This document shows positions 29,698-55,744 of a stretch of DNA of 64,000 bases, one piece after another. How positions within the stretch are numbered: position 1 is the stretch's first letter; every line of letters starts with the position of its first letter. The position numbers and the translations under genes were made by a program. The notes under the pieces are model-generated. The model was not told the DNA's origin and ran no database searches. It saw only the letters and a program-made list of their open reading frames with translations. The stretch lies in assembly GCA_964651965.1 (NCBI GenBank), contig CAZYZS010000004.1:18244-82243 (forward strand), read 5' to 3'. Origin of the DNA: Candidatus Woesearchaeota archaeon. Lineage in GTDB: Archaea > Nanobdellota > Nanobdellia > Pacearchaeales > GW2011-AR1.

Positions 29698-30639
29698 CTA
29701 TTTCTTTTTTTTGCCCTTGGAGACTCTTGATTCAGCTTCTTTTATCTTGATTTTTTCCTCTAATTCTAGCTTTTCTAAAAGTTCTTTGTACCTGTTTCTG
29801 ATTGTAACTTCTGTTATCCCTGCAACATCTGCAACTTCTCTCTGGGTTTTTTTCTCGTTGTTTAATAAAGCGGCTACGTATAATGCAGCTGCAGCTATAC
29901 CTGCCGGGCCTCTTCCTGAGGTCAGTTCAGAAATCTCTGCTTTTTTCAGTATTTTAAGAGCGTCGTTAAGAGTTTTCGGGCTTAGGTGCAAGATAGAGCC
30001 AAATCTGCTTATGTAGTCTTTAGGCGAACTAGGAGTAACTTTGATTCCAAGTTTCCTTATTATAAATCTGTAAGTTCTTCCTATCTCTTTTCTCTCTACA
30101 TCCGAGGCATTGGAAATTTCATCTAGAGTCCTTGGAATATCGTAGCTTCTGCATGCAGAATAGATGCAGGCTGCTATCACAGATTCCATACTTCTTCCTC
30201 TTACTAAGCCTCTTTGCAGGACAAAATTATAAATTCTGGCTGCTTCGTCTCTTACAACTGTAGGCAAGTTTAGGAATGATGCTACCCTTCTTAGCTCTGC
30301 CATTGCAAGTCTTAGATTTCTTTCTATCGATGTTGAGACTCTTTCCTGCCATTTTTTCAGCCTGAGAAACTTTCGGGTTGCTCCGCCTTCTAGCTTGTAG
30401 ATATCGGAAATCTCTCCTACGTTGGTAGTAAGGCCTTTATCAAATTTCTGTATGCTTAATGGAGCGCCGCCTCTTCCTTTCTTTTCGCCTGACTCAGATT
30501 TTCCATACATCTCCTGCCCGGTATCGACCATCTTTTCTTCTACTACTAAGCCGCAGTCACTGCAAATAACTTCTCCTCTTTGTTCATCATAAGTAAGGTT
30601 TATAGAATCGCATTCTGGGCATCTTTTTATAAAAGTCAT
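29698..30639 (-). CDS. tfb: Transcription initiation factor IIB (TFB)
   Basis: N-terminal zinc ribbon CPECDSINLTYDEQRGEVICSDCGLV and two cyclin-fold repeats. Confidence 0.95.
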   Translation of the reverse strand: MTFIKRCPECDSINLTYDEQRGEVICSDCGLVVEEKMVDTGQEMYGKSESGEKKGRGGAPLSIQKFDKGLTTNVGEISDIYKLEGGATRKFLRLKKWQERVSTSIERNLRLAMAELRRVASFLNLPTVVRDEAARIYNFVLQRGLVRGRSMESVIAACIYSACRSYDIPRTLDEISNASDVERKEIGRTYRFIIRKLGIKVTPSSPKDYISRFGSILHLSPKTLNDALKILKKAEISELTSGRGPAGIAAAALYVAALLNNEKKTQREVADVAGITEVTIRNRYKELLEKLELEEKIKIKEAESRVSKGKKKK

Positions 30640-33456: not shown

Positions 33457-34302
33457 CTATTTTCCTGCTAGCTTTTTAATATGTGGGATCCCAAGTATAA
33501 GAACTAAGATAAGAAGCACTACTATTACTCCGATTAATAACCCGGTGATCAAGCCACTTTCATATTTTCCTTTTTCTTGGGTATCTTCTGACGGTTCTGT
33601 AACATTCGCTGTTAGATTTACAGGCACAGGTTCTCCGAAGGTTTCTACTGTAGAATTTACTAATGGTAGCTGAAGAAGATTAAGGTTTTCTAATGGAGTC
33701 GCCATTGCGCATTTGTAGCATCCGATTACGGGGCATATGCCATCAGATTCTTGAACATTACAATTCCTTGCAGCTAGCAACCACCCCTTGTCGTACTCGT
33801 CAGTTTTAGAGCCCATCTGAACGAAGCTATTGCCGCATCCAGCTGGCTTGAAATAGAGAAGATTACCTATGCGCGAAGCGTTTGAAATTATTTTAATATC
33901 CTCTGCTGAAATCCCATAAACTATATTGTTAGTTACAAGCAACTTTAATGCCAATGAGGTTAGCCCTTCAGATTCTGGATATTTATCCATAAATTTAAGG
34001 CTTAAAGAATAAATTTTCGACTTATTACCCTCCTGGGATTGTCTAGCTACCATGAGTATTTCGTGCTTTGCATATATCGTATTAAAGTTTATCTCTTTAT
34101 ATTCTGTTAACCCTTCGCTGGTAGAAATGTTTACGCAACTTTTTTCAGTGCAATAGCTCTCAAGAGCCGCCATATCTATCCCAGAACCATTGGGGAAAAC
34201 TATCGCTAGCTGATCCGCATTATTTATTATGCAAGCAGAAACAGCTTCAAAAGTTAGCACTAAAATTAATAAGCTTAAAAAACTCAAAGCCCCTCTTTTC
34301 AT
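33457..34302 (-). CDS. Secreted protein with a signal peptide and a C-terminal TM anchor, unknown function
   Basis: N-terminal FLSLLILVLTFEAVSA, C-terminal LITGLLIGVIVVLLILVLILGI followed by basic residues. Confidence 0.5.
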   Translation of the reverse strand: MKRGALSFLSLLILVLTFEAVSACIINNADQLAIVFPNGSGIDMAALESYCTEKSCVNISTSEGLTEYKEINFNTIYAKHEILMVARQSQEGNKSKIYSLSLKFMDKYPESEGLTSLALKLLVTNNIVYGISAEDIKIISNASRIGNLLYFKPAGCGNSFVQMGSKTDEYDKGWLLAARNCNVQESDGICPVIGCYKCAMATPLENLNLLQLPLVNSTVETFGEPVPVNLTANVTEPSEDTQEKGKYESGLITGLLIGVIVVLLILVLILGIPHIKKLAGK

Positions 34303-37716: not shown

Positions 37717-37779
37717 TACTAAAAGAGAAGAAACAGCTATTTAAAACTTGTCAAATACTGAAGGTTGTTCGAAACAAGT

Positions 37780-38322
37780 TTACTTTTTTATCCTTTTCTT
37801 TACCAGGACAATCAAGATAACTGATATTATAATTATTGCCAAGCCAAGGAAGATTAGTGCTCCTGTAACATCAGCTTCTTCTGCAATCTCTTCTGTTGGT
37901 ACCCCTTTTTCAACTATCAAGACGTCAATGTTAGAGCCTGTTAAAAAGACTATTCCCATTCCTCCTGTTTCTGTTGCTTGTGGGATAAATCTTAACTCTA
38001 CTCTATACATGTCTCCTACTTCAGCGTCTGGAGGGGCTGTAAATGAAAGATTCACCTGAACTGGTTGGTGGTAGGGAACAACAAAATTGTCTAAACCATC
38101 AGTCATCTTTGCAACTTTTACCTCTTGGGTCATTTCTGCTACTGCTATTATTGGATTAGGGTCGTTATTGTTCTGGAGAGTTACATAGATGTTTCTTGTC
38201 TGTCCGGGATAGAGCTTAAGCGGACGGTCAAATATATAGGAAGTTCCAAATGCAGAAACAAAGTTTCCTAATAAAGTCAGCGCTAGCAAAATTCCTGTTA
38301 TAAAGAGTGTTTTATTTTTCAT
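37780..38322 (-). CDS. Secreted protein with a C-terminal TM anchor (180 aa)
   Basis: The start at ATG 38322 (MKNKTLFITGILLALTLL) is preferred, as it lies 5 nt after the upstream stop. The C-terminus is GALIFLGLAIIIISVILIVLVKKRIKK. Confidence 0.5.
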   Translation of the reverse strand: MKNKTLFITGILLALTLLGNFVSAFGTSYIFDRPLKLYPGQTRNIYVTLQNNNDPNPIIAVAEMTQEVKVAKMTDGLDNFVVPYHQPVQVNLSFTAPPDAEVGDMYRVELRFIPQATETGGMGIVFLTGSNIDVLIVEKGVPTEEIAEEADVTGALIFLGLAIIIISVILIVLVKKRIKK

Positions 38323-38327
38323 TTTTA

Positions 38328-39263
38328 TTATAACATATCGGCTTCCCATTGACCTTCATCGACTGTTGAGTAGGCTTGTGTTGATAAATTGGAATGAAGA
38401 TAGAGCAAGCAAAAATAAAGCTTTTCTTGTCCTTCATTTCCATTATTTTTGGTATAATTTCCTTTAGTTAGATTAGCCACCATAACTTGTATAAATTCGC
38501 CCGCCATCATTCTAGCTGTATTGTTGCATTCTGTTGGTGGAGAACCTCCTGTATTCCAGTGTACTGAGAAATTGCCAGCATATATTAGTTCGGTGTTATC
38601 TGTTTCTCCTCTAAGATGAGTGGCATTAAGTGTTATGTTTGCAGAGGGAAAATTTCCACTATTATTTAATAGGAGAGGATCGTTGGTGGAAGTGCTGTTC
38701 CATGCTCCAGGAGAGACTCCTGACCACGTTAAAAGAGAAGGGCCACCTAGAACTGATTGCTGTTCTCCAACGTCTTGTATCTGCGTTGTATTGATTGCTG
38801 CGTTAGAAGCGTTATCTTTTATATAGGCATTTATAGTCCAGGTATCATTTGCATCCCACCACCACATGGTTACATTGCAGGTAAAATTAGCATAGTCTCC
38901 TTCATAGTCTGTGACTTTGCAGCTGGCATTTGTTCTTGTATCTTCGTTTGTGAAACTAAGGTTGACTTTGGCTGTGCTTAGATTAAGATTTTCTACCCCA
39001 ACTGGGATATACACAGTAAAGTTTATAATAGCCTCGCTGTAGTCAGGGCCTTCGTTTATTGTAACTGCATCGGTTTGGTTATAAACTGTTATTATTTCTG
39101 GGCCGCCTACTGTTATGTTCAAATCAAATGGGACTGTTGTTGCTTTGCCTGTTATTGTTTTTTTAACCCAGTCAAACCAGCTTGCTGAAACTAGCGATAA
39201 AAGTAAAATTCCCATTACTCCTAGAATTAATATAAGGCTCTTTATTTTACCCTCTCTTTTCAT
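38328..39263 (-). CDS. Secreted protein (311 aa), paralogous to the membrane-proximal ectodomain of the 1808-aa giant
   Basis: ITVYNQTDAVTINEGPDYS, GDYANFTCNVTMWWWDANDTWT and VGEQQS align with ITVYNQSLAVTINEGPDPS, GDYANYTCNITMWWWDVNDTWT and VGEQLS in ORF 47036..52462. Confidence 0.6.
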   Translation of the reverse strand: MKREGKIKSLILILGVMGILLLSLVSASWFDWVKKTITGKATTVPFDLNITVGGPEIITVYNQTDAVTINEGPDYSEAIINFTVYIPVGVENLNLSTAKVNLSFTNEDTRTNASCKVTDYEGDYANFTCNVTMWWWDANDTWTINAYIKDNASNAAINTTQIQDVGEQQSVLGGPSLLTWSGVSPGAWNSTSTNDPLLLNNSGNFPSANITLNATHLRGETDNTELIYAGNFSVHWNTGGSPPTECNNTARMMAGEFIQVMVANLTKGNYTKNNGNEGQEKLYFCLLYLHSNLSTQAYSTVDEGQWEADML

Positions 39264-39300: not shown

Positions 39301-40161
39301 TCAGCTAAATTTTATCTTAAAATAAGCATAAGGCTTTTCAGAAACGTAAGTTCCACTCAAGTCGGGGAGTTTTATTGTACCTACCCCGCTCCCTTCTTCA
39401 ATAAGCTTTTTAATATCATATTCAGGGTAGCTTTCAGACGGGTTGTCAGGATTGTATTGCTGGATAATTAGTGTTTGTGAGCCGAAGTCATAACCTTCAA
39501 GAGGCAGGGATATCCTTAATTCGTTAGGGGAATTTATCTTTATATCTTTTCCAGATTGGGAAACTAGGCACAATTCTAAATAAACTTCTGTTTTGCTTTC
39601 AGCCGGTCTAACATCAGCATCTAACTCGTAACCTTCTACTTTTGAAATTATTTTTGATGCAATTCCTGAAGGGTCAAACATTGCATAATATTTACTGTCG
39701 TAATAATCAGTTCCTTCTGATGCTCCAGCATAGTGGGCTAGGCCTAAATTGCTGCTAGTGTAGCTTCTGCTTATTAAGTTATCAATTTCCAAGGAGCCCT
39801 TTACATCGCTGTTTTCTCCAGAAAGGTTAAGACTGCTTTCTCCGCTACCTCCACTTCCTCCTCCACTCCCTCCACTCCCTCCGCCTTCCCAACCACCTTC
39901 ATTCCCGCTACTTTCTTCTACATTGTCTTTAGAGGGCTCTGCTATGTCGCCCATTGCTTCTTGGGCTTTAGCTAGGGGACTTATGCTCCCTAATTCGCCT
40001 TGTTCAGAGGAAGTTGACTCGGGTGAAACTATTTTCTTGAAATCTGGGCCCATTGAAGTTAAGACAACTATTATAATAGCTGCAAAAACAACAAAGATGG
40101 AAATTGCCAGAAATAAGATTAATTTTTTATGGCTTTTTTCCTCTTTTTTAATTTCTTCCAT
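39301..40161 (-). CDS. Membrane-anchored protein with a Gly/Ser linker (286 aa), unknown function
   Basis: N-terminal TM LILFLAISIFVVFAAIIIVVL, and the linker GGWEGGGSGGSGGGSGGSGESS. Confidence 0.5.
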   Translation of the reverse strand: MEEIKKEEKSHKKLILFLAISIFVVFAAIIIVVLTSMGPDFKKIVSPESTSSEQGELGSISPLAKAQEAMGDIAEPSKDNVEESSGNEGGWEGGGSGGSGGGSGGSGESSLNLSGENSDVKGSLEIDNLISRSYTSSNLGLAHYAGASEGTDYYDSKYYAMFDPSGIASKIISKVEGYELDADVRPAESKTEVYLELCLVSQSGKDIKINSPNELRISLPLEGYDFGSQTLIIQQYNPDNPSESYPEYDIKKLIEEGSGVGTIKLPDLSGTYVSEKPYAYFKIKFS

Positions 40162-40625: not shown

Positions 40626-43600
40626 ATGGGTCATAAAAGAGCGTTTAAAAAAGGGGCGAAGAAAAAGTCGGTTAAAAGAGTAAGAGCTGTGCTTTTTTTC
40701 TGTATTCTTGCTGCAGTTTTGATACTCCTTTTGCTCTATTTAAATTCTTCTAAAAATCCTAGCAGCGAGCAAGTTGAGAGCTACGGCCAGTTGGCGAACC
40801 TGCCTGCTTCCGGGAATCTTGCCCAGGTAAATGAAACAGAAGAAGCAGTTATAACAACTTTCCAGTCTACAGCTGTTATCGGGCAACCTGTAAAGTGGAC
40901 AAAACAAATAGTTCCAAAAGAAGAAGGCTCTTTGATAGTGGAAATCCCAAAACAAGCAGAAAACATAGACATCAACAAAGTAAAGGAAGATGCAGAGGCA
41001 AGCATAATAAGCGGAGAAGTAATAAAAGGCAGCAGCGAAGTTAAGGTCTCTTATTTAAAAAGCACTCTCAAAAAAATACTCGGACTTACAGGGAGGACAG
41101 TAGACGAGCAGTTTATAGAGATTAATATGAATATTGACGAGTCTGGTGCAGAGTATTATATAAAATACGAAACTCCGGCTCCAGAAGCAACTGAACTACT
41201 GCTTTCTGAAAACGAGAAAAAAATAATAATTTCAGCACCCGATCATTTAGGTTATAAAAATATTTTGGCTTTCACATCGCTCCCAAGAGAGGTTCCTTAC
41301 AATAACCTAAAGCTTTATCACGAAATAGATGGAATAAAAGAGAGGGTAGAGGCTAAAGGGTATGATAAAAATGAAAACGGGCTTATAGATTATATTGAAT
41401 GGAATGTTCCTCACTTGTCAAACCAGTCTTACTTGCTTGTAATCGAGATAAGCAAAGCAGAGCATCTGGATGAAAATAAAGAGTTTGTTTCTGACATTTA
41501 CAACGAGGTGGTTAAGCAGGATGGACTCTGGAGTGAGACGATAAGCAATAACGAGTATGTAAGAGCCACTTTTGAGCAAGCATTGGATAATTCAAGGGAT
41601 ATTACTTTATATGCAAGAGCTTCAGGAGAAGCAAGAATAGAGGTTTATATTTCAGGCACAGACGCAAAAATTGCTGAATTTGAAAGTATTGCAGGGGAGA
41701 ACACTTACAAAGTTTATTTAACTGAAATTCCTGATGGAAAGAGTTATGAAACTTTTGATTTGAAGGTAATTGGAGCAGTTGAACTAGATTATATTGTAGA
41801 CCCTAGTTCTTACTGCTACAATAATCCTGGAGCTTCTACTTGTGATAGTTTTGATAGCAATCAGGCAGGATGCGGAGCAACAGCAAGTGACCCTCAGTAT
41901 GGATGTGCTTGGGAGGCATGCAACGGAACAGCAACTGCTTGTTCTGGGTTATCGCAAAGCAGCTGTGGAGCAACTGTAAATGACCCTCAATATGGATGTA
42001 GCTGGGTGGGATGCAATGGAAGTGTTTTGTTATGTGAAGATTCTTTGTTTGATAATAATAAAGTTGAGTGTTTAGATCAGTATGGGTGTTATTGGGATGG
42101 ATGTTCTGGAAGCGCAGATTATTGCAGTTCCTTTACAGATGTAAGCTGCAATAATCAGGGAGGTTGCAATTGGGATGCTTGCAGTGGGTCTACGCCCGAT
42201 TGCGATAGTCATACTGGGATTTCGAACCAAGCAGCTTGCTCAGCTGCAGGCTGTGATAACCTTGGTTCTCCTGACTATGTATGTTATGGGGCGCATAACA
42301 GTTGTGATTCTTATGACAGCTATGATGAAAGTGAAAAATCTAATTGTGAACTTGTTGGATGCTCTTGGAGCGGATGCACTGGAACTGCCTATACTTGCAA
42401 TGGGGCTGAGCTAAATGATAATAAAAATGGATGTTTGGACCAGGGTGGATGCCATTGGGAAGGATGCTATAATAATCCAGGAGCTACTGCCTGTAGCTCA
42501 GTAACTCAACTACACTGTAATAGCCAAGGAGGTTGCAGCTGGACAGGGTGCTCTGGAACAGCCACTACTTGCAACGGTCTAGACAGCAGTCAGTCACAGT
42601 GTAATGGCCAGCTAGGTTGTTCATGGTCTGCATGCAACGGAACAGCAACTGCATGTTATAATCTTAACACTAGCTATAGCAGCTGCACTAATCAAGCAGG
42701 ATGCTCTTATCAATATAACGATGTATGTTCGGGAGTGGATATAAGCGCTTCTGGAACAGGATGCGGGGGAAATCATGAGATAGGCACTGCAATTACTTTA
42801 ACTTACAATGCAAGCTGCCAATCAGACCCTCTATCCACTATGTCGTACACGAATTTAGGAGTTTACGAAGGACTTTCAACACTATTAGAATGCAATAATT
42901 TCTTGTCTACTGGAGATTGTAGTTCTACTGCAAATTATAATCAGGAAGTTAATTGGACTCCTGGAGATTCGGTTGGGGCCACCAGTTATTATGCTTCCTG
43001 CTATGCAGGGCCTGTAGCTTCTGAATCTTGTGCTGAGCAAGGCGAAGAAGAATGTGTAATAACATGGAGAGATACAGTTAATCCTACAATCAATATATTA
43101 TCTTCGCCATCTGCTAATTATGTGTGTAGTGGAAGTTACGAATTTAGTGCTTATGTTTGGGATTTAGATTTGTATGAATGGTTTTTTACAGGAGGTCCTT
43201 CTACGTGTAGTGGTGGTGGAGGGGCTTGCCCAAGTAACATTTGCACAGTTTCATGTAGTGGTCTTGGTGCTGGAACTTACAGCCAGCACTGGTCTGCATC
43301 AGATAACAGCTTTAATGATAATGATACTTATCCTTCATTTACAATCAATAAAGCAACACCAACTGGAAGCTTGAGTGTTTCTACTGCTACACTTTGGGAT
43401 CATAGTGATTCTTGGGGCATAAATAATGGTACAGAATTCACGATAGGTGTTACAGAAAGTAATTGTGGAGATGGTGATGTAGTATATAAAATATGGAGGA
43501 AAAAAGTAGGAGAATCCAGTTGGGTAGATGTTGGAAGCGGAGAGACTTGGACACCTACTAGAGGAAGTTATACCTATGTTTTAAATACAACTGGAGGGCA

Positions 43601-45524
43601 AAATTATTCAGCTATTTCTTTATTACATACTAAGACGTTAGTTGTTAATGGTCCTCCTTCATTAAGTGTTGCTGTAAGCCAGCCAACTTACAAAGCAGGG
43701 TCTCAAATTACAGGAACTTTAACAATGTCGGATTTAGAAAATGATCAGTTAAGTATTTGGTGTGGTATTGGTACTGCTAATAACTTCTGTGGAACACTTG
43801 ATTATTGGGTTTATGAAGATCCTCTAAATACGCAAAGCCTTTCTTGTAGCGGCAGTTTAATTGATGACGGTACTAATGGTGTAAAATGGTTAGTTTGTAG
43901 AGTATCTGATAGTCCTGGAAATTTGATAATTGATTCTTCAGATGATTATATTGCAGATGGCACTACCCCTACAATCACGATTACTTCTATAGGTGGAGAC
44001 ACAACTGCGCCTTATGTCACACCAGATACAACCCCTTCTGCTGTTTTGTCGACTCAAGAGAGTGCAACTTGCAGGGCAAGTTTTGATGATGAAGGTTATG
44101 ATGATATGGCAGATGATTATGATTGTGGTCCTGCAGGGACGAGTCATACTTGTGATTTGGGGTTGTGGACTGAGGGTCCTTATACGGTTTATTTTGCATG
44201 TGTTGATTCGATTGGAAATAATCATACATCTGCAACAAACACAGAGGCTGATTTTACAATTAAGATTACTCCCCCCACTATAACAGTTGTTGCTGTTGGA
44301 GCTGATGATTCTTCTCCATATTCTGTTTCAGACACTTCATCTTCATTAACTAGAAATGTTACAACTAGCGAAAGTGCAACCTGTAAATGGGACGATGCAG
44401 ATGTAGGATATGATTCAATGGGTTATAGTTGCAGTGCAGATGCAGGAGGAACAGGGCATGCATGCGGGGGGGCTGGAAAGGGTGATGGGAGCTATACAGA
44501 TTATATTGCATGTGTTGATGAGGTTGGAAATAATCATACATCTGGAACAAACACAGAAGTAAGTTACGAGATTGATTCTACTGCTCCAATACAATCAGGG
44601 CATTCTCCTTCAGATGGATCGACAATTTATACTTATTCTCCTGCAATAACTTTCTCAACTGATGAGGATGCAAGGTGCTTATGGAGTTTGACAGACCAAG
44701 ATTATGGAAGCATGTCTGGGAGCAATACATGTGATTCTTCTTATACAACCTCACACTCTTGTTCTGTTTCTGGATTAACAGGAGATATAGATTATGTTTA
44801 TACAGCTTGTGCGGATGATACGGAGTATTATGCAAATGAGGATACAGCAGGAACAAACACACATTTGGGTTATTATATACTGCAGCTTAATGTTTCTTTA
44901 TCAAAAGGATGGAATCTGTTTGCAGTTATATCCAATTATTCCAATGACGGGAAGGATAGGAATATTTCAGTTGAAGCAGGGTGGAATTTAATTGGATATT
45001 CTAGTAATGTTTCTGTTAATTTAAGCCAGGTAATTTTTACAAATTCTTCTGGTTCAAGATATACATGGCAGCAGGCAATAAGTGCAAGAAAAGTCCAGGC
45101 ATATTTAATTTACAGGGAAAATAACAGGTACAAATATGTAGGCTTGGAAGGAAGTGGGATGCATGATTATGCCTTAAAACCTGGAAGAGCATCTTGGGAT
45201 CATGTATCGGAGCCAGGTAACATTACCTTGCCAGGCGTTGGGGGAAGCCCGCCTCAAAGCCAAGGTCAAACCTTTAGTTTTAGCAGTTTGCAGTTCCATA
45301 ATGGAACAAATTTGGCAAACATGGCACAGATGACTGCTGGAACTTATGATTGGGTGTTCTTACAAAACGATTTTATTTATTTTAGAGATGTGGATATAAA
45401 TGATTTTGAGGATATCTGTGGGAATATAATGGAGTGCTACACTGGTAAAACAACTGTTTCTCCGTGGGAAGGGTATTTTATCTGGAGTGATTATAATAAT
45501 ATAACTATGATTGTCTATCCTTAA
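40626..45524 (+). CDS. Giant surface protein (1632 aa) with Cys-rich repeats and Ig-like repeats
   Basis: N-terminal TM. It has a ~320-aa module shared with ORF 47036..52462, about ten GC-x-W-x2-C-x-G repeats, and three ~100-aa repeats ending in ..ACVD.(I/V)GNNHTS. Confidence 0.7.
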   Translation: MGHKRAFKKGAKKKSVKRVRAVLFFCILAAVLILLLLYLNSSKNPSSEQVESYGQLANLPASGNLAQVNETEEAVITTFQSTAVIGQPVKWTKQIVPKEEGSLIVEIPKQAENIDINKVKEDAEASIISGEVIKGSSEVKVSYLKSTLKKILGLTGRTVDEQFIEINMNIDESGAEYYIKYETPAPEATELLLSENEKKIIISAPDHLGYKNILAFTSLPREVPYNNLKLYHEIDGIKERVEAKGYDKNENGLIDYIEWNVPHLSNQSYLLVIEISKAEHLDENKEFVSDIYNEVVKQDGLWSETISNNEYVRATFEQALDNSRDITLYARASGEARIEVYISGTDAKIAEFESIAGENTYKVYLTEIPDGKSYETFDLKVIGAVELDYIVDPSSYCYNNPGASTCDSFDSNQAGCGATASDPQYGCAWEACNGTATACSGLSQSSCGATVNDPQYGCSWVGCNGSVLLCEDSLFDNNKVECLDQYGCYWDGCSGSADYCSSFTDVSCNNQGGCNWDACSGSTPDCDSHTGISNQAACSAAGCDNLGSPDYVCYGAHNSCDSYDSYDESEKSNCELVGCSWSGCTGTAYTCNGAELNDNKNGCLDQGGCHWEGCYNNPGATACSSVTQLHCNSQGGCSWTGCSGTATTCNGLDSSQSQCNGQLGCSWSACNGTATACYNLNTSYSSCTNQAGCSYQYNDVCSGVDISASGTGCGGNHEIGTAITLTYNASCQSDPLSTMSYTNLGVYEGLSTLLECNNFLSTGDCSSTANYNQEVNWTPGDSVGATSYYASCYAGPVASESCAEQGEEECVITWRDTVNPTINILSSPSANYVCSGSYEFSAYVWDLDLYEWFFTGGPSTCSGGGGACPSNICTVSCSGLGAGTYSQHWSASDNSFNDNDTYPSFTINKATPTGSLSVSTATLWDHSDSWGINNGTEFTIGVTESNCGDGDVVYKIWRKKVGESSWVDVGSGETWTPTRGSYTYVLNTTGGQNYSAISLLHTKTLVVNGPPSLSVAVSQPTYKAGSQITGTLTMSDLENDQLSIWCGIGTANNFCGTLDYWVYEDPLNTQSLSCSGSLIDDGTNGVKWLVCRVSDSPGNLIIDSSDDYIADGTTPTITITSIGGDTTAPYVTPDTTPSAVLSTQESATCRASFDDEGYDDMADDYDCGPAGTSHTCDLGLWTEGPYTVYFACVDSIGNNHTSATNTEADFTIKITPPTITVVAVGADDSSPYSVSDTSSSLTRNVTTSESATCKWDDADVGYDSMGYSCSADAGGTGHACGGAGKGDGSYTDYIACVDEVGNNHTSGTNTEVSYEIDSTAPIQSGHSPSDGSTIYTYSPAITFSTDEDARCLWSLTDQDYGSMSGSNTCDSSYTTSHSCSVSGLTGDIDYVYTACADDTEYYANEDTAGTNTHLGYYILQLNVSLSKGWNLFAVISNYSNDGKDRNISVEAGWNLIGYSSNVSVNLSQVIFTNSSGSRYTWQQAISARKVQAYLIYRENNRYKYVGLEGSGMHDYALKPGRASWDHVSEPGNITLPGVGGSPPQSQGQTFSFSSLQFHNGTNLANMAQMTAGTYDWVFLQNDFIYFRDVDINDFEDICGNIMECYTGKTTVSPWEGYFIWSDYNNITMIVYP
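41805..42735 (+). repeat. Array of ~27-aa Cys-rich coding repeats (consensus C..Q.GC.W..C.G.A..C)
   Basis: Read from the translation: YGCAWEACNGTATAC, YGCSWVGCNGSVLLC, YGCYWDGCSGSADYC, GGCNWDACSGSTPDC, VGCSWSGCTGTAYTC, GGCHWEGC, GGCSWTGCSGTATTC, LGCSWSACNGTATAC. Confidence 0.7.
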
Positions 45525-45567
45525 AATAAGCGAAAAGTTTATAAACTTGTAACTACTATATGATAGT

Positions 45568-47010
45568 ATGAAAAACCCATTAGAAGAATTGCTGGTAGGT
45601 GCAGTAAAAAATGCTGGAAAAGCTGTGAGGGGTATTGGCAGATTTGTTAGAAAGCATAGGCGAGGATTAACTACTTTAGCCTTACCACTTGCTATGGCTG
45701 GTAAGGCGGATGCAGAAGGGCTGGCTATGACCTATCATGTGGATGGAATTGGGGGCTCTAATTGTTATGTTGTTTTTGTTGCAGGGGCTAGTCGCGGGTT
45801 GGATGATTTTGATAATATCCGTGAAGATATCCCTCGTCCTGATCAAGCTTATATTGAAGCTAATGGGAGTGTTGAAGGAGTAGAAGTTAAAGGGGTTGCT
45901 AATCCTCCCTTGAAATTAGGAGAGTCTTCTTCTGAAAGTTTTAATGGCAGCATAAAGGTTCAAACAGGCACTGTCAATTTAGATAAAGCATCACATTATT
46001 TAACATGGTCGGCGGATTTACCTGGTTGTAAGGTTTATATTAATGGAGTAGATGCAGGAACAACTAACAGATTAGATTTTGGGACTTTAACAGAAACATT
46101 GGGAGAAGGAGAACATCCAACTGCAAGTTGGAATACTCTTGTTGAATATGTTGGTAATGGTAATGGCGGAGAGCCAAACAATCCTCCTGTTGTTGTAAGA
46201 AAACCTCATGAAATTTTAATCGAAGATGTGCATACATTTATGGGGTCTTCTAGCCTTATTTTAAGGGCTAAAGAAGGAACTCTGCAGGATGTTGAACATC
46301 CTGGGACTGCAATTGGACTTCCTCCTCCCGCAATTGTTGTAGCTAAAGATGGAAAATATTTCACAGTACACGAAAAAGATGTAAACGATGTAGGCTCTGT
46401 TTTTTTACAGGAAAGATGGTTTTCAGGCTATGATGGGCAGAATATTAACATTAACCGTAAAGAAACACATAATTTGCGGGTTCATCTTACTCAAGGATCT
46501 TTGAATGGAACTACAATATTTCGAGAATATATTCCACTTGCAGGAGATGCTACGAATCCATATCCTGATGCAGAGAGTTTTCCTCCATATCAACTTGAAA
46601 CAGGGCTAAAAGCCCCTGGAGACATTATGGAAATTCCTCTTAAAGCTTATCCTAAAAAAGTACTTTCTGGAGATGCAACTAATTATGGTTTGCTAACACA
46701 ATCTTCAATGGCAGATACTGCCCCTGGATTGGGAGATGGCAGAGTAGATTTGAGGGATTTTGCTAGATTTGCAAGAGACTGGAGAAGAGTAGGAAATTCG
46801 CAACATGATTATGTAAAGGTTGATCCAAATGGGGAAATGCAGGCCGGAATAGGCGGAGATGGGGCAGTCAGTGGTCCTGATTTGGTTTTTTTTTGTGATG
46901 AATACCTTCGAGGTACTGCTCCAAAAGGAGCAACTCCTAAGGAGTTAGGGAATTTAGCATATTGGGCCCATCAGGAAATGATGGAAAAGGCAACTTCTGG
47001 AAAGAAATAA
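45568..47010 (+). CDS. Secreted protein (480 aa) with a C-terminal dockerin-like repeat pair
   Basis: Hydrophobic segment LTTLALPLAMAGKADA. The C-terminal LGDGRVDLRDFARFARDW and GGDGAVSGPDLVFFCDEYL resemble the two Ca-binding dockerin segments. A TATA-like aaagtttataaac lies ~25 nt upstream. Confidence 0.45.
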   Translation: MKNPLEELLVGAVKNAGKAVRGIGRFVRKHRRGLTTLALPLAMAGKADAEGLAMTYHVDGIGGSNCYVVFVAGASRGLDDFDNIREDIPRPDQAYIEANGSVEGVEVKGVANPPLKLGESSSESFNGSIKVQTGTVNLDKASHYLTWSADLPGCKVYINGVDAGTTNRLDFGTLTETLGEGEHPTASWNTLVEYVGNGNGGEPNNPPVVVRKPHEILIEDVHTFMGSSSLILRAKEGTLQDVEHPGTAIGLPPPAIVVAKDGKYFTVHEKDVNDVGSVFLQERWFSGYDGQNININRKETHNLRVHLTQGSLNGTTIFREYIPLAGDATNPYPDAESFPPYQLETGLKAPGDIMEIPLKAYPKKVLSGDATNYGLLTQSSMADTAPGLGDGRVDLRDFARFARDWRRVGNSQHDYVKVDPNGEMQAGIGGDGAVSGPDLVFFCDEYLRGTAPKGATPKELGNLAYWAHQEMMEKATSGKK

Positions 47011-47035: not shown

Positions 47036-50000
47036 TTAATCCTTTATTGTTCTGTTGTAAATTGTCCATATATTCCTCTCATCTCTGTTTAATAGATTGG
47101 CTATTTCTATGTATCTTAATTGTTTTTCTTTAAGATAGCTTATTATTGCTTCTAATGCTGTTAATTCTCCTGAGAATATTGACAATGGAATTTCGATGCC
47201 TTTTCTTATCTCTAGCTTTTCTGGCATTTTCTCTCTTGCTTTGTTATAAGATGCCCAGACTGTTCTCTCGTTTCTATTTATTATTTGTGATATCTCATGA
47301 TAAGTTAATTGCATATTTTCTTTAAGATACTTGACAACAGCCTCTAATCCTCCCAATTGTTTTGTGAAGATGCTTAGAGGGACGGAGACTTTATCTTTTA
47401 TTTCTTTTAGAGTTATTTCTGGCTTTATTTCTTCTTTTGTTATCTTCTTTGCTTTTTTGCTTATCTTGTTATAAATTGTCCAGATGTTTCTCTCGTCCCT
47501 GTTTAATAATTCTGCTATCTCTTTGTTTCTAAACTCCTTTTCTTTAAGGTAGTTGATTATTGCTTCTAAGGCTGTTAACTCTGTACTAAAGATTGATAAT
47601 GGAACAGAAATTCCTTTTTCTTCTTTCTCTTTTACTTTTAATTTCTCTGGCATCTTTTCTCTTGCCTTGTTATAAGATGCCCAGACTGTCCTTTCATCTC
47701 TGTTGATTAATTGAGATATTTCATGATAAGTTAATTGTAAATTTTCTTTAAGATACTTAACAACTGCCTCTAAGCCCCCTAATTGTTTCGTGAATACACT
47801 TATAGGTATTTTTTCTTCTCTTAGCTTTCTTAGTTTAGTAAACAAAACGGCTGCTCTTTTCTTTTTCTTTCTACTTCTGACTACTGCCAATACTGTTAAG
47901 CTCGCGAGTAGATCTACTTCCCAAGATCCTTCTTTTGCTGTAGAAAAAGCCTGTGTTTGAGTTAAGTCGCTTCCAACTATCTTTAAGCAAAAGTAGAATT
48001 CTTCTTGTGCAGTTCCATCGCCTCTGGTATAGTTTCCTTTTGGAAGTGTTGAAGATGCTATCTGTGTAAAAAGGCCATGCTGCATAGAAGTTGCTGCGCA
48101 TTCAGGTTTTAAAGGGCCTGTTTCTGTTCCAATAGAGAAATTTTCTGCCCATAAATATTTAGTATCGTCTGCTTCTCCTCTTAGATTAGTTGCATTTACT
48201 GGGAAATTGATTAAAGGAACATTTCCTATGTTGTTTATTTTTAGAGAGTTGCTTGCTGTTTGATTTTCTGAACCGGGCATAAGTGCTTGCCAGGTTATGA
48301 ATGGGACACTTGCATTTATTATGGATAACTGCTCTCCTACTTCTTGTATTGTTTCATTCACTGCAGAAGCTCCTCCTATATCTTTTATTTGAACATTGGC
48401 TGTCCAGGTATCATTTACATCCCACCACCACATTGTAATATTACAGGTATAATTTGCATAATCTCCCGAAGATTGTTTTTCTTGGCATGAACTAACGTTT
48501 CTTAATTCCTCACTCGGGAACGACATATTTGCATAGGAAGTTGCATCGTCGAGATCTGCTGCAGAGTCGGGATCATAAGCTGTGAAATTAATTTCTGCAA
48601 AACTAGGGTCTGGACCTTCGTTTATTGTAACTGCTAGGCTTTGATTGTAAACGGTTATTATTTCTGGGGCGGTGTTTAGGATTGTTAATTTGGAAGAATT
48701 TACCCAAGAACTATAGTCTGAGCCGTCGTGAAGTCTTATTCCGCAGCTCCAGTTATCTCCTTTGGTTGTGTTGGTATTATGAAGAGAAGCATTGAAAAGA
48801 GTTCCAGAATCATAGCTGTTGTTGTAATCAAATCTGAACTGATAAGAATTTTCTTTGTACCATTCTACTGAGACATTCAATGAATTAGAATCAGGGTCAG
48901 AAATTGTGGCTCTGCACCATAAATCTTGGAGAGTTTTGTTGCTTCCATCTGTGGAGTTTATATTTACTATCGGATTATTTGGAGCATTTCCAGTATTAAC
49001 TGTAAACTCTATTTGTTCAGTGTTATTTATGTTGTTCACAGTATCGTTGCACCAGAACTTGGCAGTAAACGAGTCTTCTTTCATTGTTGTGTTTGTAAAA
49101 TTAAAATAAGTATCATTATATCTGGTCATCGTATAATTATATTCCCAGTTATTTATTGTAAACTTGCAATTGCTTATGTTTTCATTAGAAGAAACATTGA
49201 ATTCGATAGTAGTTGTGGTGTAAGTTGTGCTTTCAGGACTTTTTATTACAATATTCGGGGCAACTGTGTCAACTGCAAAACTTACAATATTGGAAGAAGC
49301 ATTCATATTTCCTGCTGTATCGTTGCATGCAAAGACAATTGAATGCCCTCCTTGTGTCATTGTTGTGTTTGTAAAATTAAAATAAGTATCATTAAACCTC
49401 GTCATTGTTATATTTGGCGAGCCATCTAAGCTGAATCCGCACCAGCTCGAGTTTTCATTTAAACTTACATTAAAGCTCATTGTTGTTGATGCATAAGTCG
49501 TATTGGTAGGAGAAACAATAGTCATAAGAGGTTTAGTTGTATCAACTGCAAATGCCTTTGTTTCTGTATTATTAGTATTGTTTAGTGTATCATTGCACCA
49601 GAACTTGGCAATGTAACTTCCCTCAGGAACCGAACTATTGGTAAAATTAAAATAAGTATCATTATATCTAGTCATTGTATAATTAGATTCCCAATTATTT
49701 ATTGTAAACTTGCAGAAGGATAAGTTCTCGTTGGAAGAAACATTGAAGTTTATAGTTGAGGTGCTGTAAGTTGTATTAGTTGGGCTTTTTATTATAATAT
49801 TTGGGGCAACTGTATCTTGGCTGTATCCTATCTTAACGTATAGATAAGAAGCTGCGTTAATAGAGGCATTGTATCCGGTATTTGTTCTCATATCACGAGA
49901 GGCAATTGGTGTGGAGTAAGTGGCATCTGTTCCGTAATAAGTAAAGTTCATGTAATACTCGCTTCCGTCGAGAGACGCCCAGCTGAAATTCAAGCTACCA

Positions 50001-52462
50001 GTTTGGGCAGTATCTATGTGGTACTCTAGATATAACGTTCTTGGGTTTTCAGAGGCATTCCAGGAATCAACTGCTAAATGGTAATGTGTTCCATCAGTTA
50101 TGTTGGAATAAAATTCTGAGTACTCTGAAGGCGGAGGTTCGCTTTCAATATCGTAGGCATCAAATCCTGATGTAGAATCTGGATTAGTTTTAAGAAAAAC
50201 GCTTGCTGTATAGCTATTTATGGTCCCAATTATCTCAAGATTTAAGTTAGGGTCAATTACATAGTCTAATTCAACTGAGCCGAGGATTTTTAAATCAAAA
50301 GAGTTGTAACTTTCGCTTCCTAAATTATTCAAGTAAACTCTGTACCATCCTTCTTCACTAATATTTTCAAAAGAAGTTATTAGTTCGCTGCTGTCTTTTG
50401 CATACACTTCAATTCTGGAATTTTCAGAACCTCTTGCATATATTTTTATATCGCTGGATTTGGTTAGATTCTCTTCAAAAGTTAATCTAACATACTCGTT
50501 GTTTTTTATTGTCCCACTCCAGATTCCGTCAATAGCTTTAACTTCGGGATAGATATCAGAAATAAAATTTCTGTTTTCATCCAAGTGTTCTGCTTGAATT
50601 ATGTTTATTATCAGAAGATAAGACTGGTTGGATAAATGAGGAACATTCCATTCAATGTAATCGACTAGACCATTTTGATTAGTGTCATAGGCCTTAATCT
50701 GAACTCTTTTGTTTTCTGTTTGATGATATAGAGCTATCTGGTTTATTGGAACTTCTTTAGGAAGAGTTGTATATGCTAGGATATTTTCATATCCCAAGTT
50801 ATCAGGGGCTGAAACTATGATCTGCTTTTCGTTTTTAGAAATGTTTATCTCTGTTGCTTCTGGGGCAGGGGTCTCATAAGTTATTTCATATTTAGAGGCA
50901 TTGTCTTCAATGACTACATCAACTGATTGCGGAGTTTCTTCTGTTGTAACCGCCCTTCCTGTTAAAGCTGAAAAAAGCCGGGTGAAAAATCCCGGTTTTT
51001 GATTTCCTTCAATTGCTTGGCCTGTAATGCCAGAAGTTATAGAAAAAGCAGCAGGCTCGCTTTCTTCTTGTATTTTATAGGACTCGATTTTGTTAACTTC
51101 TATATTTTCAGCTTCTTTTGGAAGCTCTACCTTTATTTTTCCTGGCTTATCTAATTCTATTCTCTTTGTCCAATTTACAGGCTGGCCTATGACTATTCTT
51201 GAGAAGGTGGTGTTAATTAGGGTTATGTTTGTATCTGTAAGGTTTATAACAGATTCGTTTAATTCTATTGTTTCATTTATTTTTGCTTCACTTAGGATTT
51301 CGTAGATTATTTCTTCCAAGAAAACAGAAGCATTGTTAATTTCAATTCTTAGGCTATATGAAGATTGGTTGAGATTTAGAGAGGAAAGGTCGCAGGTTTC
51401 TTCGCATATTTTGTTGAATCTTCTTATTTCTTTTTGTTTCGGGATTTCTTCTTTTTCTTCTGGTGGAACAGTTGGTTGGGTTATATTTGTTTCAGTTATA
51501 TTTTCTGGCTGCACTTCAGTTACATTTTCTTCTTGTATTACTTTTGAAGCTGTTTGGTTTTCTTCTGGTAAAATTTCAGAGACAGCTGGCTCTTCACTTC
51601 GTTCAGAGGAGCTAGCAGGCTCTTCGCCTTGCTCAGAGGAGACAGAGGGCTCTTCTTGGGGTTGACTCGGAGCAATTTCTTGCTCTTTTGGAGCCCCCTG
51701 TTCTTCTGAATAGGATAGTGATTCTTGTGGGGTTTCTGAAGGAGTAGAAGCTGAAGCCTCCTGTGAGGCTTTGGATGGTAAGTCAGTTGAACTTGTTTGT
51801 GAGGATTCTGGCGGAGATGATTCGGTTGAAGAAGATTCAGAAGAGGCAGCAGAAGAGGATTCAGAAGCTGCTGCTTCATCAACAGCCAAGCCAGTCAGGC
51901 TTGCTTGTTTTGCTTTTAGGTTAGAGCTATCGAGAATTAAGTAATTATCCAGATATATTTTAACTTCTCCTTCGCCTTCAATTAATCCTGAAAGTCTTGC
52001 AGAGAGCAACTGGCCTGGATTTTGAATCTGCCATTCGTAAGTTTCAGAAGAAGAGAAAGTTAGATTAAGTTTTTCTGTGTACTCTTGTTTTTGTTCCTGT
52101 ACAACTAAACCTAGCATAGTTCCCCGGAAATAAAATAAAGTTACAGACACTAAGGAAATAAAAAGGAGAAATAAAAAAACAGCCAGTATCTTTTTACCTG
52201 TGGATTTTATTTTTTCTTTTTCTATTTTTGATTTGCAGTCTTCTATGTAAGAGTCATAGATTTTCAGCCACTGGCCGAGTGTTTTTCCGTCTCTTTTTTT
52301 GTTCAGCAGTTTTTCGTATTCAGAATAAGTTATTTCTCGGTTTTCACACTTATTTTTTAACCCATTAATATAATTAAGAACTTTACTTTTGTTTTCTTTT
52401 GCTTGTTTGACTCTGCTTCTAAGTTCAACTAAGATACTTCCCTCTTTTTGAGTCAATCCCAT
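47036..52462 (-). CDS. Giant surface protein (1808 aa) with a C-terminal tail of four HTH repeats
   Basis: N-terminal ~90 aa, then TM ILAVFLFLLFISLVSVTLFYF. A Ser/Pro/Glu-rich linker follows, then the module shared with ORF 40626, three ~95-aa repeats and the module shared with ORF 38328. Next come the short hydrophobic LLASLTVLAVV plus RSRKKKKR, and finally 4 HTH-like repeats. Confidence 0.7.
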   Translation of the reverse strand: MGLTQKEGSILVELRSRVKQAKENKSKVLNYINGLKNKCENREITYSEYEKLLNKKRDGKTLGQWLKIYDSYIEDCKSKIEKEKIKSTGKKILAVFLFLLFISLVSVTLFYFRGTMLGLVVQEQKQEYTEKLNLTFSSSETYEWQIQNPGQLLSARLSGLIEGEGEVKIYLDNYLILDSSNLKAKQASLTGLAVDEAAASESSSAASSESSSTESSPPESSQTSSTDLPSKASQEASASTPSETPQESLSYSEEQGAPKEQEIAPSQPQEEPSVSSEQGEEPASSSERSEEPAVSEILPEENQTASKVIQEENVTEVQPENITETNITQPTVPPEEKEEIPKQKEIRRFNKICEETCDLSSLNLNQSSYSLRIEINNASVFLEEIIYEILSEAKINETIELNESVINLTDTNITLINTTFSRIVIGQPVNWTKRIELDKPGKIKVELPKEAENIEVNKIESYKIQEESEPAAFSITSGITGQAIEGNQKPGFFTRLFSALTGRAVTTEETPQSVDVVIEDNASKYEITYETPAPEATEINISKNEKQIIVSAPDNLGYENILAYTTLPKEVPINQIALYHQTENKRVQIKAYDTNQNGLVDYIEWNVPHLSNQSYLLIINIIQAEHLDENRNFISDIYPEVKAIDGIWSGTIKNNEYVRLTFEENLTKSSDIKIYARGSENSRIEVYAKDSSELITSFENISEEGWYRVYLNNLGSESYNSFDLKILGSVELDYVIDPNLNLEIIGTINSYTASVFLKTNPDSTSGFDAYDIESEPPPSEYSEFYSNITDGTHYHLAVDSWNASENPRTLYLEYHIDTAQTGSLNFSWASLDGSEYYMNFTYYGTDATYSTPIASRDMRTNTGYNASINAASYLYVKIGYSQDTVAPNIIIKSPTNTTYSTSTINFNVSSNENLSFCKFTINNWESNYTMTRYNDTYFNFTNSSVPEGSYIAKFWCNDTLNNTNNTETKAFAVDTTKPLMTIVSPTNTTYASTTMSFNVSLNENSSWCGFSLDGSPNITMTRFNDTYFNFTNTTMTQGGHSIVFACNDTAGNMNASSNIVSFAVDTVAPNIVIKSPESTTYTTTTIEFNVSSNENISNCKFTINNWEYNYTMTRYNDTYFNFTNTTMKEDSFTAKFWCNDTVNNINNTEQIEFTVNTGNAPNNPIVNINSTDGSNKTLQDLWCRATISDPDSNSLNVSVEWYKENSYQFRFDYNNSYDSGTLFNASLHNTNTTKGDNWSCGIRLHDGSDYSSWVNSSKLTILNTAPEIITVYNQSLAVTINEGPDPSFAEINFTAYDPDSAADLDDATSYANMSFPSEELRNVSSCQEKQSSGDYANYTCNITMWWWDVNDTWTANVQIKDIGGASAVNETIQEVGEQLSIINASVPFITWQALMPGSENQTASNSLKINNIGNVPLINFPVNATNLRGEADDTKYLWAENFSIGTETGPLKPECAATSMQHGLFTQIASSTLPKGNYTRGDGTAQEEFYFCLKIVGSDLTQTQAFSTAKEGSWEVDLLASLTVLAVVRSRKKKKRAAVLFTKLRKLREEKIPISVFTKQLGGLEAVVKYLKENLQLTYHEISQLINRDERTVWASYNKAREKMPEKLKVKEKEEKGISVPLSIFSTELTALEAIINYLKEKEFRNKEIAELLNRDERNIWTIYNKISKKAKKITKEEIKPEITLKEIKDKVSVPLSIFTKQLGGLEAVVKYLKENMQLTYHEISQIINRNERTVWASYNKAREKMPEKLEIRKGIEIPLSIFSGELTALEAIISYLKEKQLRYIEIANLLNRDERNIWTIYNRTIKD
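47039..47845 (-). repeat. Tandem ABAB coding repeats (~200 bp each) encoding four HTH-like units
   Basis: A units: ..FTKQLGGLEAVVKYLKEN(L/M)QLTYHEISQ(L/I)INR(D/N)ERTVWASYNKAREKMPEKL. B units: ..LTALEAII(N/S)YLKEK..(K/I)EIA(E/N)LLNRDERNIWTIYN. The A1/A2 DNA appears ~85% identical by eye. Confidence 0.75.
48990..49815 (-). repeat. Three tandem ~285-bp coding repeats (~95-aa beta-rich modules); boundaries approximate
   Basis: Each repeat contains (S)PT/ESTTY..T(T/I)..FNVS.NEN.S.C.F...N.TMTR(Y/F)NDTYFNFTN...F.CNDT. Confidence 0.65.
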
Positions 52463-52713
52463 ACTTATTATTTGTTAAAAATACCTTATAAATATTGTGT
52501 TTTGTACTTACTATGTATGTATTACTCCAGAATTACAAAATAAGGAATTTTTTACTTATTATTTATTAATAAGTATATTTAAATCTTTCTATTTATACTT
52601 ACTATTTATGTATAAAATACAATACGCGCGCATGAACTTATACTAAAGGAAAAAAATTTGTATGATTCTGTAACAATAAAATATTAAAAGGTGATTTTTC
52701 TATTTAGGGGTAT

Positions 52714-52786
52714 GCACGGATGGCGAAGTGGCTAACGCGACCGCCTGCAGAGCGGTTATTCATGGGTTCGAGTCCCATTCCGTGCT
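52714..52786 (+). tRNA. tRNA-Cys (GCA), intronless
   Basis: Hand fold: acceptor GCACGGA/TCCGTGC, anticodon stem ACCGC/GCGGT, loop CTGCAGA, T arm ATGGG-TTCGAGT-CCCAT. Confidence 0.85.
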
Positions 52787-52886: not shown

Positions 52887-53039
52887 ATGGTAAAAAAATC
52901 AAAGATAAGCGTTTCAGTTGATGAAGAAACATTGGCTAAAATAGATGAGAATATTTTTAAGAGAAAATTCAGGAACCGAAGCCATGCCTTTGAATTCTGC
53001 ATAAATGAAGTATTGGGAGGGGAAAATGAAAACCAGTGA
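52887..53039 (+). CDS. Ribbon-helix-helix (CopG/Arc-like) mini-protein, 50 aa (below the ORF-track cutoff)
   Basis: MVKKSKISVSVDEETLAKIDENIFKRKFRNRSHAFEFCINEVLGGENENQ. Its 3' end overlaps the kinase start at 53026. Confidence 0.6.
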   Translation: MVKKSKISVSVDEETLAKIDENIFKRKFRNRSHAFEFCINEVLGGENENQ

Positions 53040-55610: not shown

Positions 55611-55744
55611 AAACTATACAGGAAATGTGTGTTTTTAAAGTTTTCTATTTTTGATATCAGTAATATTAATAATATCAGAAAGATATTAAATCGTACCGGT
55701 TTGTATTACCATTGTATAGTAAATACATAATAAATGTATACAAA

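Follow-up and report, generated by a model that had tools for sequence, protein, structure and literature searches.

Why should a giant surface protein of a DPANN archaeon end in helix-turn-helix (HTH) domains? To our knowledge, DPANN archaea possess few recognizable signaling systems, and how they sense their hosts is unexplained. The question is posed by a 64,000-nucleotide stretch from Candidatus Woesearchaeota archaeon (assembly GCA_964651965.1, contig CAZYZS010000004.1, positions 18,244 to 82,243), referred to here as the window, in which a gene on the minus strand (47036..52462) encodes an 1808-residue protein, the giant, with a long ectodomain followed by a short hydrophobic stretch and a tail of four HTH units. 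We find that the giant truly belongs to a large and so far undescribed family of giant surface proteins in DPANN archaea of the Woesearchaeota/Pacearchaeota type, that its tail most probably binds DNA in a sequence-specific manner, and that a bipartite promoter element, ACATA-N5-TAAGTA, is a plausible candidate for the tail's DNA target. In our estimate there is a roughly 60% chance that the giant is a membrane-tethered, probably autoregulated DNA-binding regulator that couples a host-contact surface protein to gene expression.

The giant, its tail and its relatives

The open reading frame (ORF) of the giant is a single uninterrupted frame with its stop codon at 47036-47038. Its contiguity, assumed in the initial annotation of the window, holds across contigs: the identical 1808-residue protein is found on two contigs (the longest of 163 kb), a variant at ≥90% identity on a third and a 73% identical ortholog (locus L085) on a fourth, both of them again 1808 residues long. 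The chain opens with a Lys-rich, helical and presumably cytoplasmic domain (residues 1-91; 52190..52462, like all parts of the gene on the minus strand). A word-index search for homologs of the first 124 residues gave no match, and local BLASTP against representative proteins, used instead, found the domain in at least 27 giant members of the family; its profile has no significant relative in Pfam or the PDB. Next come the sequence KSTGKK and a signal-anchor transmembrane segment, TM1 (residues 92-112, ILAVFLFLLFISLVSVTLFYF; 52127..52189), whose 19-residue Kyte-Doolittle mean of 2.9 is the maximum of the protein. The ectodomain (residues 113-1517; 47912..52126) combines a Ser/Pro/Glu-rich spacer with weak Big_13-like immunoglobulin (Ig) repeats and carries 72 N-x-S/T glycosylation sequons. 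An extracellular portion of about 1450 residues had been proposed; a large ectodomain is upheld, and its size is corrected to 1405 residues, following an N-terminal domain of about 90 residues and TM1. Closest to the membrane lies a conserved module (residues 1262-1517; 47912..48679) of two Ig-like beta-sandwiches that ends in the motif YST..G.W. Its AlphaFold2 (AF2) model has a predicted local distance difference test score (pLDDT) of 89, and structure comparison returned generic Ig/adhesin fold neighbors only, with no clue to a ligand. The presumed second span, LLASLTVLAVV (residues 1518-1528; 47879..47911), has the second-highest 11-residue Kyte-Doolittle mean of the protein (2.72). It is followed by the putative polybasic stop-transfer patch RSRKKKKR (residues 1529-1536; 47855..47878) and a further 272 residues, among which there is one sequon.

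Hidden Markov models built from homologs locate four HTH units in this tail by hmmsearch, in the ABAB order that had been read from the sequence: A1 (residues 1550-1607; 47642..47815; 94.8 bits), B1 (1618-1670; 47453..47611; 81.0 bits), A2 (1692-1749; 47216..47389; 91.9 bits) and B2 (1757-1807; 47042..47194; 82.8 bits). The 291-residue tail matches Pfam Sigma70_r4_2 with 48.1 bits against a cutoff of 25.7, the best stretch (1718-1746) lying in A2. Single units stay below the Pfam cutoff, 19 of 31 matching the same profile at E≤0.01, and an NCBIfam scan gave partial matches to extracytoplasmic function (ECF) sigma models that are confined to region 4. An AF2 model of residues 1500-1670, built on a 98-sequence alignment, has a mean pLDDT of 87 and contains two tri-helical HTH units, A1 and B1, each preceded by a short strand (IPxSIF). 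Its top Foldseek matches in the PDB are region 4 of SigE, SigR, SigD and SigW, with root-mean-square deviations of 0.7-0.9 Å over 45 columns; weaker matches to the whole pair are the tandem-HTH proteins Cbp2 (2lvs) and SETMAR. Profile searches of PDB sequences with the transmembrane-plus-AB alignment yielded nothing at E≤1, and the best hit of the single-unit alignment, at E = 0.01, is not significant. The initial annotation had offered both LuxR/GerE and sigma region 4 as the identity of these domains. Profile and fold bear out the latter; the former label falls, as GerE (PF00196) is not among the families in E≤1 scans (for the tail, the best 25 of 31 families) or among the 12 families from the single-unit scan at E≤0.01. 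Region-4-type matches were also the only sigma matches when the whole protein and the tail were scanned against Pfam and NCBIfam, and Sigma70_r2 was absent; models of full-length sigma factors reach 14-41 bits where the cutoffs are 43-323, and PF04542 is absent from the precomputed domains of the 120 homologs listed.

DNA identity between the two AB copies is 83% and 76%, and their ratio of nonsynonymous to synonymous substitutions (dN/dS) is 0.087 with dS near saturation, which implies an old duplication and two copies that are both translated and constrained by purifying selection. In either type of unit, conservation is highest in the recognition helix: the residues of R..R(T/N)IW..Y....K are invariant or at least 90% conserved over the 98 sequences, and one shared DNA target is predicted on that basis.

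How widespread is such a fusion? A search with the last ectodomain module (residues 1262-1532) against 1.84 billion representative proteins returned 780 representatives at E<1e-3. AB or ABAB tails are present on 72 of the 150 best of these, in proteins of 344 to 5919 residues, so that the fusion noticed in the window recurs broadly. About 73 of the same 150 consist of the module alone (roughly 300-330 residues), like the window ORF 38328..39263. A few long proteins gave no HTH match; most of these stop at the hydrophobic stretch or shortly past it, as would be expected of truncated sequences, but P0260 differs. The 458 matches of a search with the tail are mostly soluble proteins of about 185 residues, made of a helical N-terminus of about 60 residues and one AB pair. 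These soluble paralogs are abundant in Woesearchaeota and Pacearchaeota, and those inspected have no signal peptide. In all, 468 loci were found in species-representative genomes, nearly all of them metagenome-assembled genomes of Woesearchaeota, Pacearchaeota or Nanoarchaeota. Neither the fusion nor the promoter element treated below turned up in searches of the accessible literature. With surface proteins that carry their own DNA-binding domains in hundreds of species-level genomes, the family is a concrete and widespread candidate for host sensing in DPANN archaea.

On which side of the membrane does the tail lie? In 85 fusions the junction reads YST..G.W-T-(I/V)-(K/R)-(I/V), followed by 8-12 hydrophobic residues and a basic run. 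From the Trp to the last residue before that run the median distance is 15 residues, and the 12 residues after the stretch hold a median of eight Lys or Arg. Sequon density in the same proteins falls about 10-fold at the stretch, from 5.17 per 100 residues upstream to 0.48 downstream; most cytoplasmic-type proteins of the window have 0-0.9. Because of the sequon drop, the basic run and the signal-less soluble homologs, we place the tail, in all probability, in the cytoplasm, the chain being predicted to form an N-in/C-in loop. This predicted topology fits the positive-inside rule as well as the sequon drop. Leu-rich segments of about 10-12 residues with flanking Lys are able to integrate in translocon studies, so that so short a span is possible. 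Its shortness is clearly a conserved peculiarity of the family, and 11-15 residues followed by poly-Lys offer a natural test case for the minimum length of a stop-transfer sequence.

A paired element in the promoters of the family

Immediately upstream of the giant, on the gene's own strand, the element ACATA-N5-TAAGTA occurs in two tandem cassettes of the form [ACATA-N5-TAAGTA] - TATA - [..TAAGTA]. The upstream cassette comprises the distal operator-like element R1 (ACATAAATAGTAAGTA; 52596..52611), an exact match that is conserved in the ortholog L085, a TATA-like box read from the sequence (TTTAAATA; 52576..52583) and R2 (TAATAAATAATAAGTA; 52553..52568), with an exact right half-site and a degenerate left half; it is also present at L085 and L210. 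The proximal cassette begins with R3 (ACATACATAGTAAGTA; 52505..52520), again an exact match, at the position of the distal operator of eight other giants. It continues with a TATA box (TTTATAAG; 52485..52492) centered about 26 nucleotides before the ATG and conserved at the same place in 37 family promoters, and it ends with R4 (AACAAATAATAAGTA; 52462..52477), whose final A is the A of the start codon; in the family consensus, too, a proximal operator abuts the ATG. A TATA-like box about 25-32 nucleotides before the ATG is found at other genes of the window as well, a spacing which implies that mRNAs, the giant's included, are probably leaderless. The aligned upstream region, a tRNA-Cys gene plus an intergenic promoter of about 250 nucleotides, shares 89% identity with its counterpart at the 73% identical ortholog.

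The core ATARTAAGTA occurs four times in the 64 kb, both strands counted, against an expectation of 0.49 (0 of 100 shuffles), at 52462-71, 52505-14, 52553-62 and 52596-605; all four copies are on the sense strand within 150 nucleotides upstream of the giant's gene, and there is none elsewhere in the window. When one mismatch is allowed, 29 copies are found versus 15 expected, an enrichment of about 2-fold. A similar ATAATAAGA-ATG stands at the start of another surface-protein gene (33457..34302), which implies that part of the proximal site may belong to a general start-site context. The specificity of the element rests on the full bipartite 16-mer and on its occurrence as a pair.

Does the element follow the family? 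Eight further giants that were found by protein similarity have the same layout, ACATA-N5-TAAGTA, about 20 nucleotides, TTTATAAG, about 8 nucleotides and ACATA-N5-TAAGTA-(A)TG, and the operator-TATA-operator arrangement recurs upstream of soluble AB genes. Besides the window, the element is present at loci L001, L004, L052, L075, L081, L083, L085-L089, L210 and L211. Starting from the proteins, the 16-mer (≤1 mismatch) lies within 110 nucleotides upstream of 9 of 9 giants versus 0 of 111 other ORFs of at least 100 residues on the same DNA. Starting from the motif, a scan of 241 million metagenome records for two 16-mers 30-45 nucleotides apart yielded 80 loci, in 41-43 of which the pair runs exactly up to the start codon of a family gene, encoding either a giant with the N-terminal domain or an AB protein of about 180 residues; most of the remaining loci are simple tandem repeats. 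Across the 37 family promoters the gap between the 16-mers is 35-40 nucleotides (mode 36), with centers about 52 bp, or five helical turns, apart, and the spacer is unconserved except for the TATA box. We also considered whether ABAB tails go together with duplicated, four-site promoters; this holds for the window, L085 and L210, fails for L211 and is ambiguous for L004, and the idea was dropped.

Models for a probably tethered, DNA-binding tail

In conjunction, the family, the topology and the promoter element lead us to propose the following model. The chain would begin in the cytoplasm with the helical domain of about 90 residues, cross the membrane at TM1 and display a long, heavily N-glycosylated, adhesin-like ectodomain that ends in the conserved Ig-like pair at the membrane. 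It would re-enter the cell through the very short hydrophobic stretch, locked in place by 6-10 Lys or Arg, and present one pair (AB) or, as in the giant of the window, two pairs (ABAB) of sigma70-region-4-like HTH units at its cytoplasmic end. One AB pair may read one 16-mer, the half-sites of which lie about one helical turn apart. The probable target would be the two ACATA-N5-TAAGTA copies that bracket the TATA box and overlap the point at which transcription and translation of the family's own genes begin. By covering the TATA-flanking and start sites, the soluble paralogs of about 185 residues and the tethered tails could regulate their own genes, and gene expression would be tied to how much of a host-contact surface protein there is, or to its state. 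Sequence statistics support the architecture and the topology; both the binding of AB to the element and the modulation of that binding by the ectodomain are steps that we infer.

Several observations weigh against this proposal. A factor other than the AB module could bind the element. The near-invariant recognition helices imply that many paralogs compete for few sites, a situation that a simple sensor-regulator fits poorly, and no protease (by Pfam, among window ORFs of at least 150 residues), partner or ligand was identified. The initial annotation had envisaged the same order of an N-in span, a huge ectodomain, a second anchor and a cytoplasmic tail, and had cautioned that the second anchor is short. 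The positive-inside rule and the sequon drop speak for that order, but the hydrophobic stretch fails the 19-residue Kyte-Doolittle criterion and is far shorter than the anchors of about 22 residues in other surface proteins of the window. AF2 models disagree on it, rendering it either as a long helix (pLDDT 56-73) or as the last Ig strand, WEVDLLA, with coil (pLDDT 51-75). Finally, a linker of only 21 residues separates the membrane from the first HTH.

It is conceivable that the tail acts after release, as in Notch or SREBP. While tethered it would be inactive; host contact, or force on the ectodomain, would then lead to cleavage in or near the short span, and the freed AB or ABAB would bind the operators. 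We regard this as possible, if rather unlikely. In many fusions the linker plus AB resembles a complete soluble paralog of about 185 residues, N-terminal helical region included, and the giant has no internal Met suited to separate production of the tail. The marginal span is conserved and does not resemble the usual anchors encoded elsewhere in this genome; cleavage could be gated by the conserved Ig pair next to the membrane and by the module-only paralog encoded alongside. Against release, neither a rhomboid nor a site-2 protease or other candidate is found by Pfam among the window ORFs of at least 150 residues, no cleavage motif is defined, a tethered factor could reach the DNA given the small size of DPANN cells, and membrane-bound regulators that act uncleaved are known (PMC10269533). 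We speculate, more tentatively still, that the giant and its relatives are contact receptors of episymbiotic DPANN archaea, in which binding to the ectodomain or a pull on it at the host interface would destabilize or cleave the marginal span of 11-15 residues and free or unmask AB, which would then occupy the operators, the soluble paralogs serving as a diffusible arm. If true, this would amount to a one-protein path from the host surface to a promoter.

The tail might also be no regulator at all. It could anchor DNA, either its own locus or the nucleoid, at the membrane, for example coupling transcription, translation and export of the giant product of a leaderless mRNA, or, as a decoy, it could titrate the soluble AB regulators or the sites at which they act. 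Tethered and soluble forms have almost the same recognition helices, so that both must compete for the same target; the operators stand at family genes only, in the DNA examined, and the linker to the membrane is very short. Operators that bracket a TATA box, one of them overlapping the start, are nevertheless the classic layout of transcriptional control, which a pure tether does not need, and we find this alternative doubtful. If there were no second span, the stretch would be the last strand or edge of the Ig module, and the basic HTH tail would lie outside the cell, where it might bind extracellular or host nucleic acid. The hydrophobic run does shrink to 7-12 residues once the WT(I/V)(K/R)(I/V) strand is counted as Ig, and it does fail the 19-residue hydropathy test. 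The 10-fold drop in sequons exactly at the stretch in 85 proteins, the 6-10 Lys/Arg after it as the positive-inside rule has it, the absence of a signal peptide from the soluble homologs inspected and a candidate DNA target in the cell's own promoters make an extracellular tail very improbable. It is hardly credible that misassembly or a frameshift made the ORF a chimera, or that a chance fusion added a genuine sigma factor of bacterial type or a LuxR regulator. Gene callers do divide the giant into several ORFs at L001 and L002, with a 41-nucleotide overlap before the tail-bearing piece, which may reflect sequencing frameshifts, and Woesearchaeotal sigma-70 matches have been reported as 'sigma factors' (PMC8204110). 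Many other relatives are contiguous, however: the uninterrupted ORF recurs on independent contigs and in the ortholog, dozens of contiguous giants of up to 5919 residues bear the tail, the tail is under purifying selection, and no Sigma70_r2 or GerE domain was detected in the Pfam and NCBIfam scans or among the listed homolog domains.

How does the tethered regulator that we favor compare with known systems? Bacteria and archaea both have membrane-bound one-component regulators, among them ToxR, TcpP and CadC as well as ArnR/ArnR1 (PMC10269533, PMC6396743), so that an archaeal precedent exists. Like them, the giant unites in one polypeptide a predicted DNA-binding HTH domain, a transmembrane region (TM1 at the least) and an extracytoplasmic part, and such proteins are presumed to act from the membrane. 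Unlike them, its DNA-binding domain is C-terminal and follows a second, very short presumed span in a predicted N-in/C-in loop; it employs a tandem pair, or double pair, of sigma-region-4-like HTHs in place of an OmpR-type winged helix; the family's ectodomain is a glycosylated, adhesin-like array of 1400-5500 residues; and the family is restricted to DPANN archaea, a name that does not occur in the text of the survey PMC10269533. With respect to ToxR and CadC in particular, which consist of an N-terminal OmpR-type winged helix, one transmembrane segment and a C-terminal periplasmic sensor, the giant has no Trans_reg_C match, the reverse domain order and two predicted spans.

Region 4 of ECF sigma factors (Sigma70_r4_2; SigE region 4 on -35 DNA, PDB 2h27) is the best profile and structural match of each unit, and both have T-(V/I) as the motif that opens the recognition helix. 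The differences are that the tail has no region 2, that there is no bacterial RNA polymerase and the archaeon's genome uses TFB, that the units come as covalently linked AB pairs and that no PDB sequence matches at E<0.01. Castelle et al. 2021 (PMC8204110) described 'sigma-70 sigma factors' (fam00359) as prevalent among Woesearchaeota and state that no anti-sigma factor is known for them and that the mechanism of their control is unclear. This family probably corresponds to the soluble AB proteins, an equation that draws on shared matches to sigma-70 models. The paper treats the proteins as bacterial-type sigma factors, and its passages on them mention neither a tandem, region-4-only build nor the fusion or a promoter element. 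Because the soluble AB proteins lack region 2, they are not sigma factors. The Woesearchaeotal 'sigma-70 factors without anti-sigma factors' are thus probably explained as tandem region-4-only HTH proteins, either soluble or fused to giant adhesins, for which a precise DNA element, ACATA-N5-TAAGTA, and a defined promoter layout are now available.

Other likenesses are more distant. The CRISPR-repeat-binding proteins Cbp1/Cbp2 (2lvs) and the paired-type domain of SETMAR (7s03) also join two small HTHs by a basic linker and recognize a bipartite DNA site; they are soluble, and no CRISPR array is involved with the giant. The Foldseek match to 2lvs is weak (probability 0.66; 27% identity over 107 columns). 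Notch, SREBP and ATF6 share with the giant a large ectodomain, a conserved membrane-proximal module and a cytoplasmic DNA-targeting tail, a likeness of architecture alone. Anti-sigma factors are alike in overall layout only, and the N-terminal domain has no significant match, to anti-sigma domains such as zf-HC2/RsiW and RseA_N or otherwise, in Pfam or the PDB. That this domain is an anti-sigma-like partner of the region-4-like tail found no homology support in Pfam or PDB profile searches, and we set the idea aside as speculation. The end of the protein is also unlike an archaeosortase/PGF-CTERM signal: there is no PGF or PEF motif, 272 residues follow the basic patch, and the YST..G.W motif is present in unanchored paralogs as well.

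Neighboring genes in the window

At seven loci (L001, L002, L086, L087, L088, L210 and L211) the giant is followed by a module-only paralog of about 310 residues and then by an anchored protein of about 180 residues, and a larger surface protein can come next (cluster spans: window 34981-39263 on the minus strand, L001 9189-12630, L002 9927-13920). In the window, the paralog (38328..39263, minus strand; 311 residues) has a signal sequence and two Ig-like domains, without anchor or tail. It aligns with the last ectodomain module of the giant, and its C-terminus, WEADML, falls where the giant's hydrophobic stretch begins, as had been noticed from the sequence. The third gene of the cluster (37780..38349, minus strand; 189 residues; homologous to L001 10169-10705 and L002 10915-11526) encodes a C-terminally anchored surface protein. 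Like the product of 33457..34302, this protein terminates in a transmembrane segment of about 22 residues plus a basic patch, an ending that the initial annotation had likewise described for other surface proteins here. Paralog and anchored protein share the strand of the giant and are parted from it by two plus-strand genes (40626..47010) and by 39301..40161 on the minus strand; in relatives, the module-only paralog lies directly downstream of the giant.

Upstream of the giant, an opposite-strand tRNA gene is found in the window (52714-52786), at L085 and at L001 (about 3490-3590), and a divergent class-II aminoacyl-tRNA synthetase gene precedes the giant at L004, L087 and L089; these recurring neighbors suggest that its chromosomal position is conserved. 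A Ser/Thr protein kinase gene (53005-54696, plus strand; Pkinase, E = 2e-19) is divergent from the giant's gene and has a counterpart on the contig of the 73% identical ortholog (L085 6542-8119). It could be part of the giant's signaling context.

The window has a G+C content of about 36%, several intron-containing tRNA genes and genes for the archaeal housekeeping proteins eIF2-alpha, SRP54, FtsY, GINS51, TFB (29698..30639), ribosomal protein S3Ae and a RIO kinase. Two more large proteins are encoded on its plus strand. One (40626-45524; 1632 residues) has an N-terminal anchor and is paralogous to ectodomain regions of relatives' giants, with 38% identity over 410 residues to the L002 giant; it lacks an HTH tail, and its sequon density of 1.5 per 100 residues is lower than that of the HTH giant. 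The other (16403-22717; 2104 residues) has a signal peptide, no Pfam match and 0.3 sequons per 100 residues versus 4.7 in the ectodomain of the HTH giant; it is followed by a gene for a membrane-anchored Peptidase_M64 (IgA-peptidase-like) protein (22763-24424, plus strand).

Beyond the kinase gene, two plus-strand ORFs (55712-56470 and 57598-58233) encode signal peptides and end in ...GYSF and ...YKFGGQKK. One of them matches Phenol_MetA_deg, a family of bacterial outer-membrane channels that one would not expect in an archaeon with a single membrane; horizontal transfer could account for it, or this end of the window could be misassembled. In the same region, 54693-55610 and 61543-62316 (both minus strand) have AbrB/MazE-like N-termini, the MazE_antitoxin profile being matched by the former only and NTP_transf_2 and Polbeta by the latter, and 59145-61073 (plus strand) encodes a 642-residue protein with HNH-associated repeats; these three genes may form a defense or mobile-element patch. 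Four of the six tRNA genes are 86-136 nucleotides long (10934-11069, 26046-26159 and 3805-3891 on the minus strand, 34398-34491 on the plus strand) and probably contain introns; two of the long ones were detected by Rfam only, and ARAGORN assigned a four-base anticodon to one. A LAGLIDADG_3-like ORF (11186-12172, plus strand) adjoins the longest.

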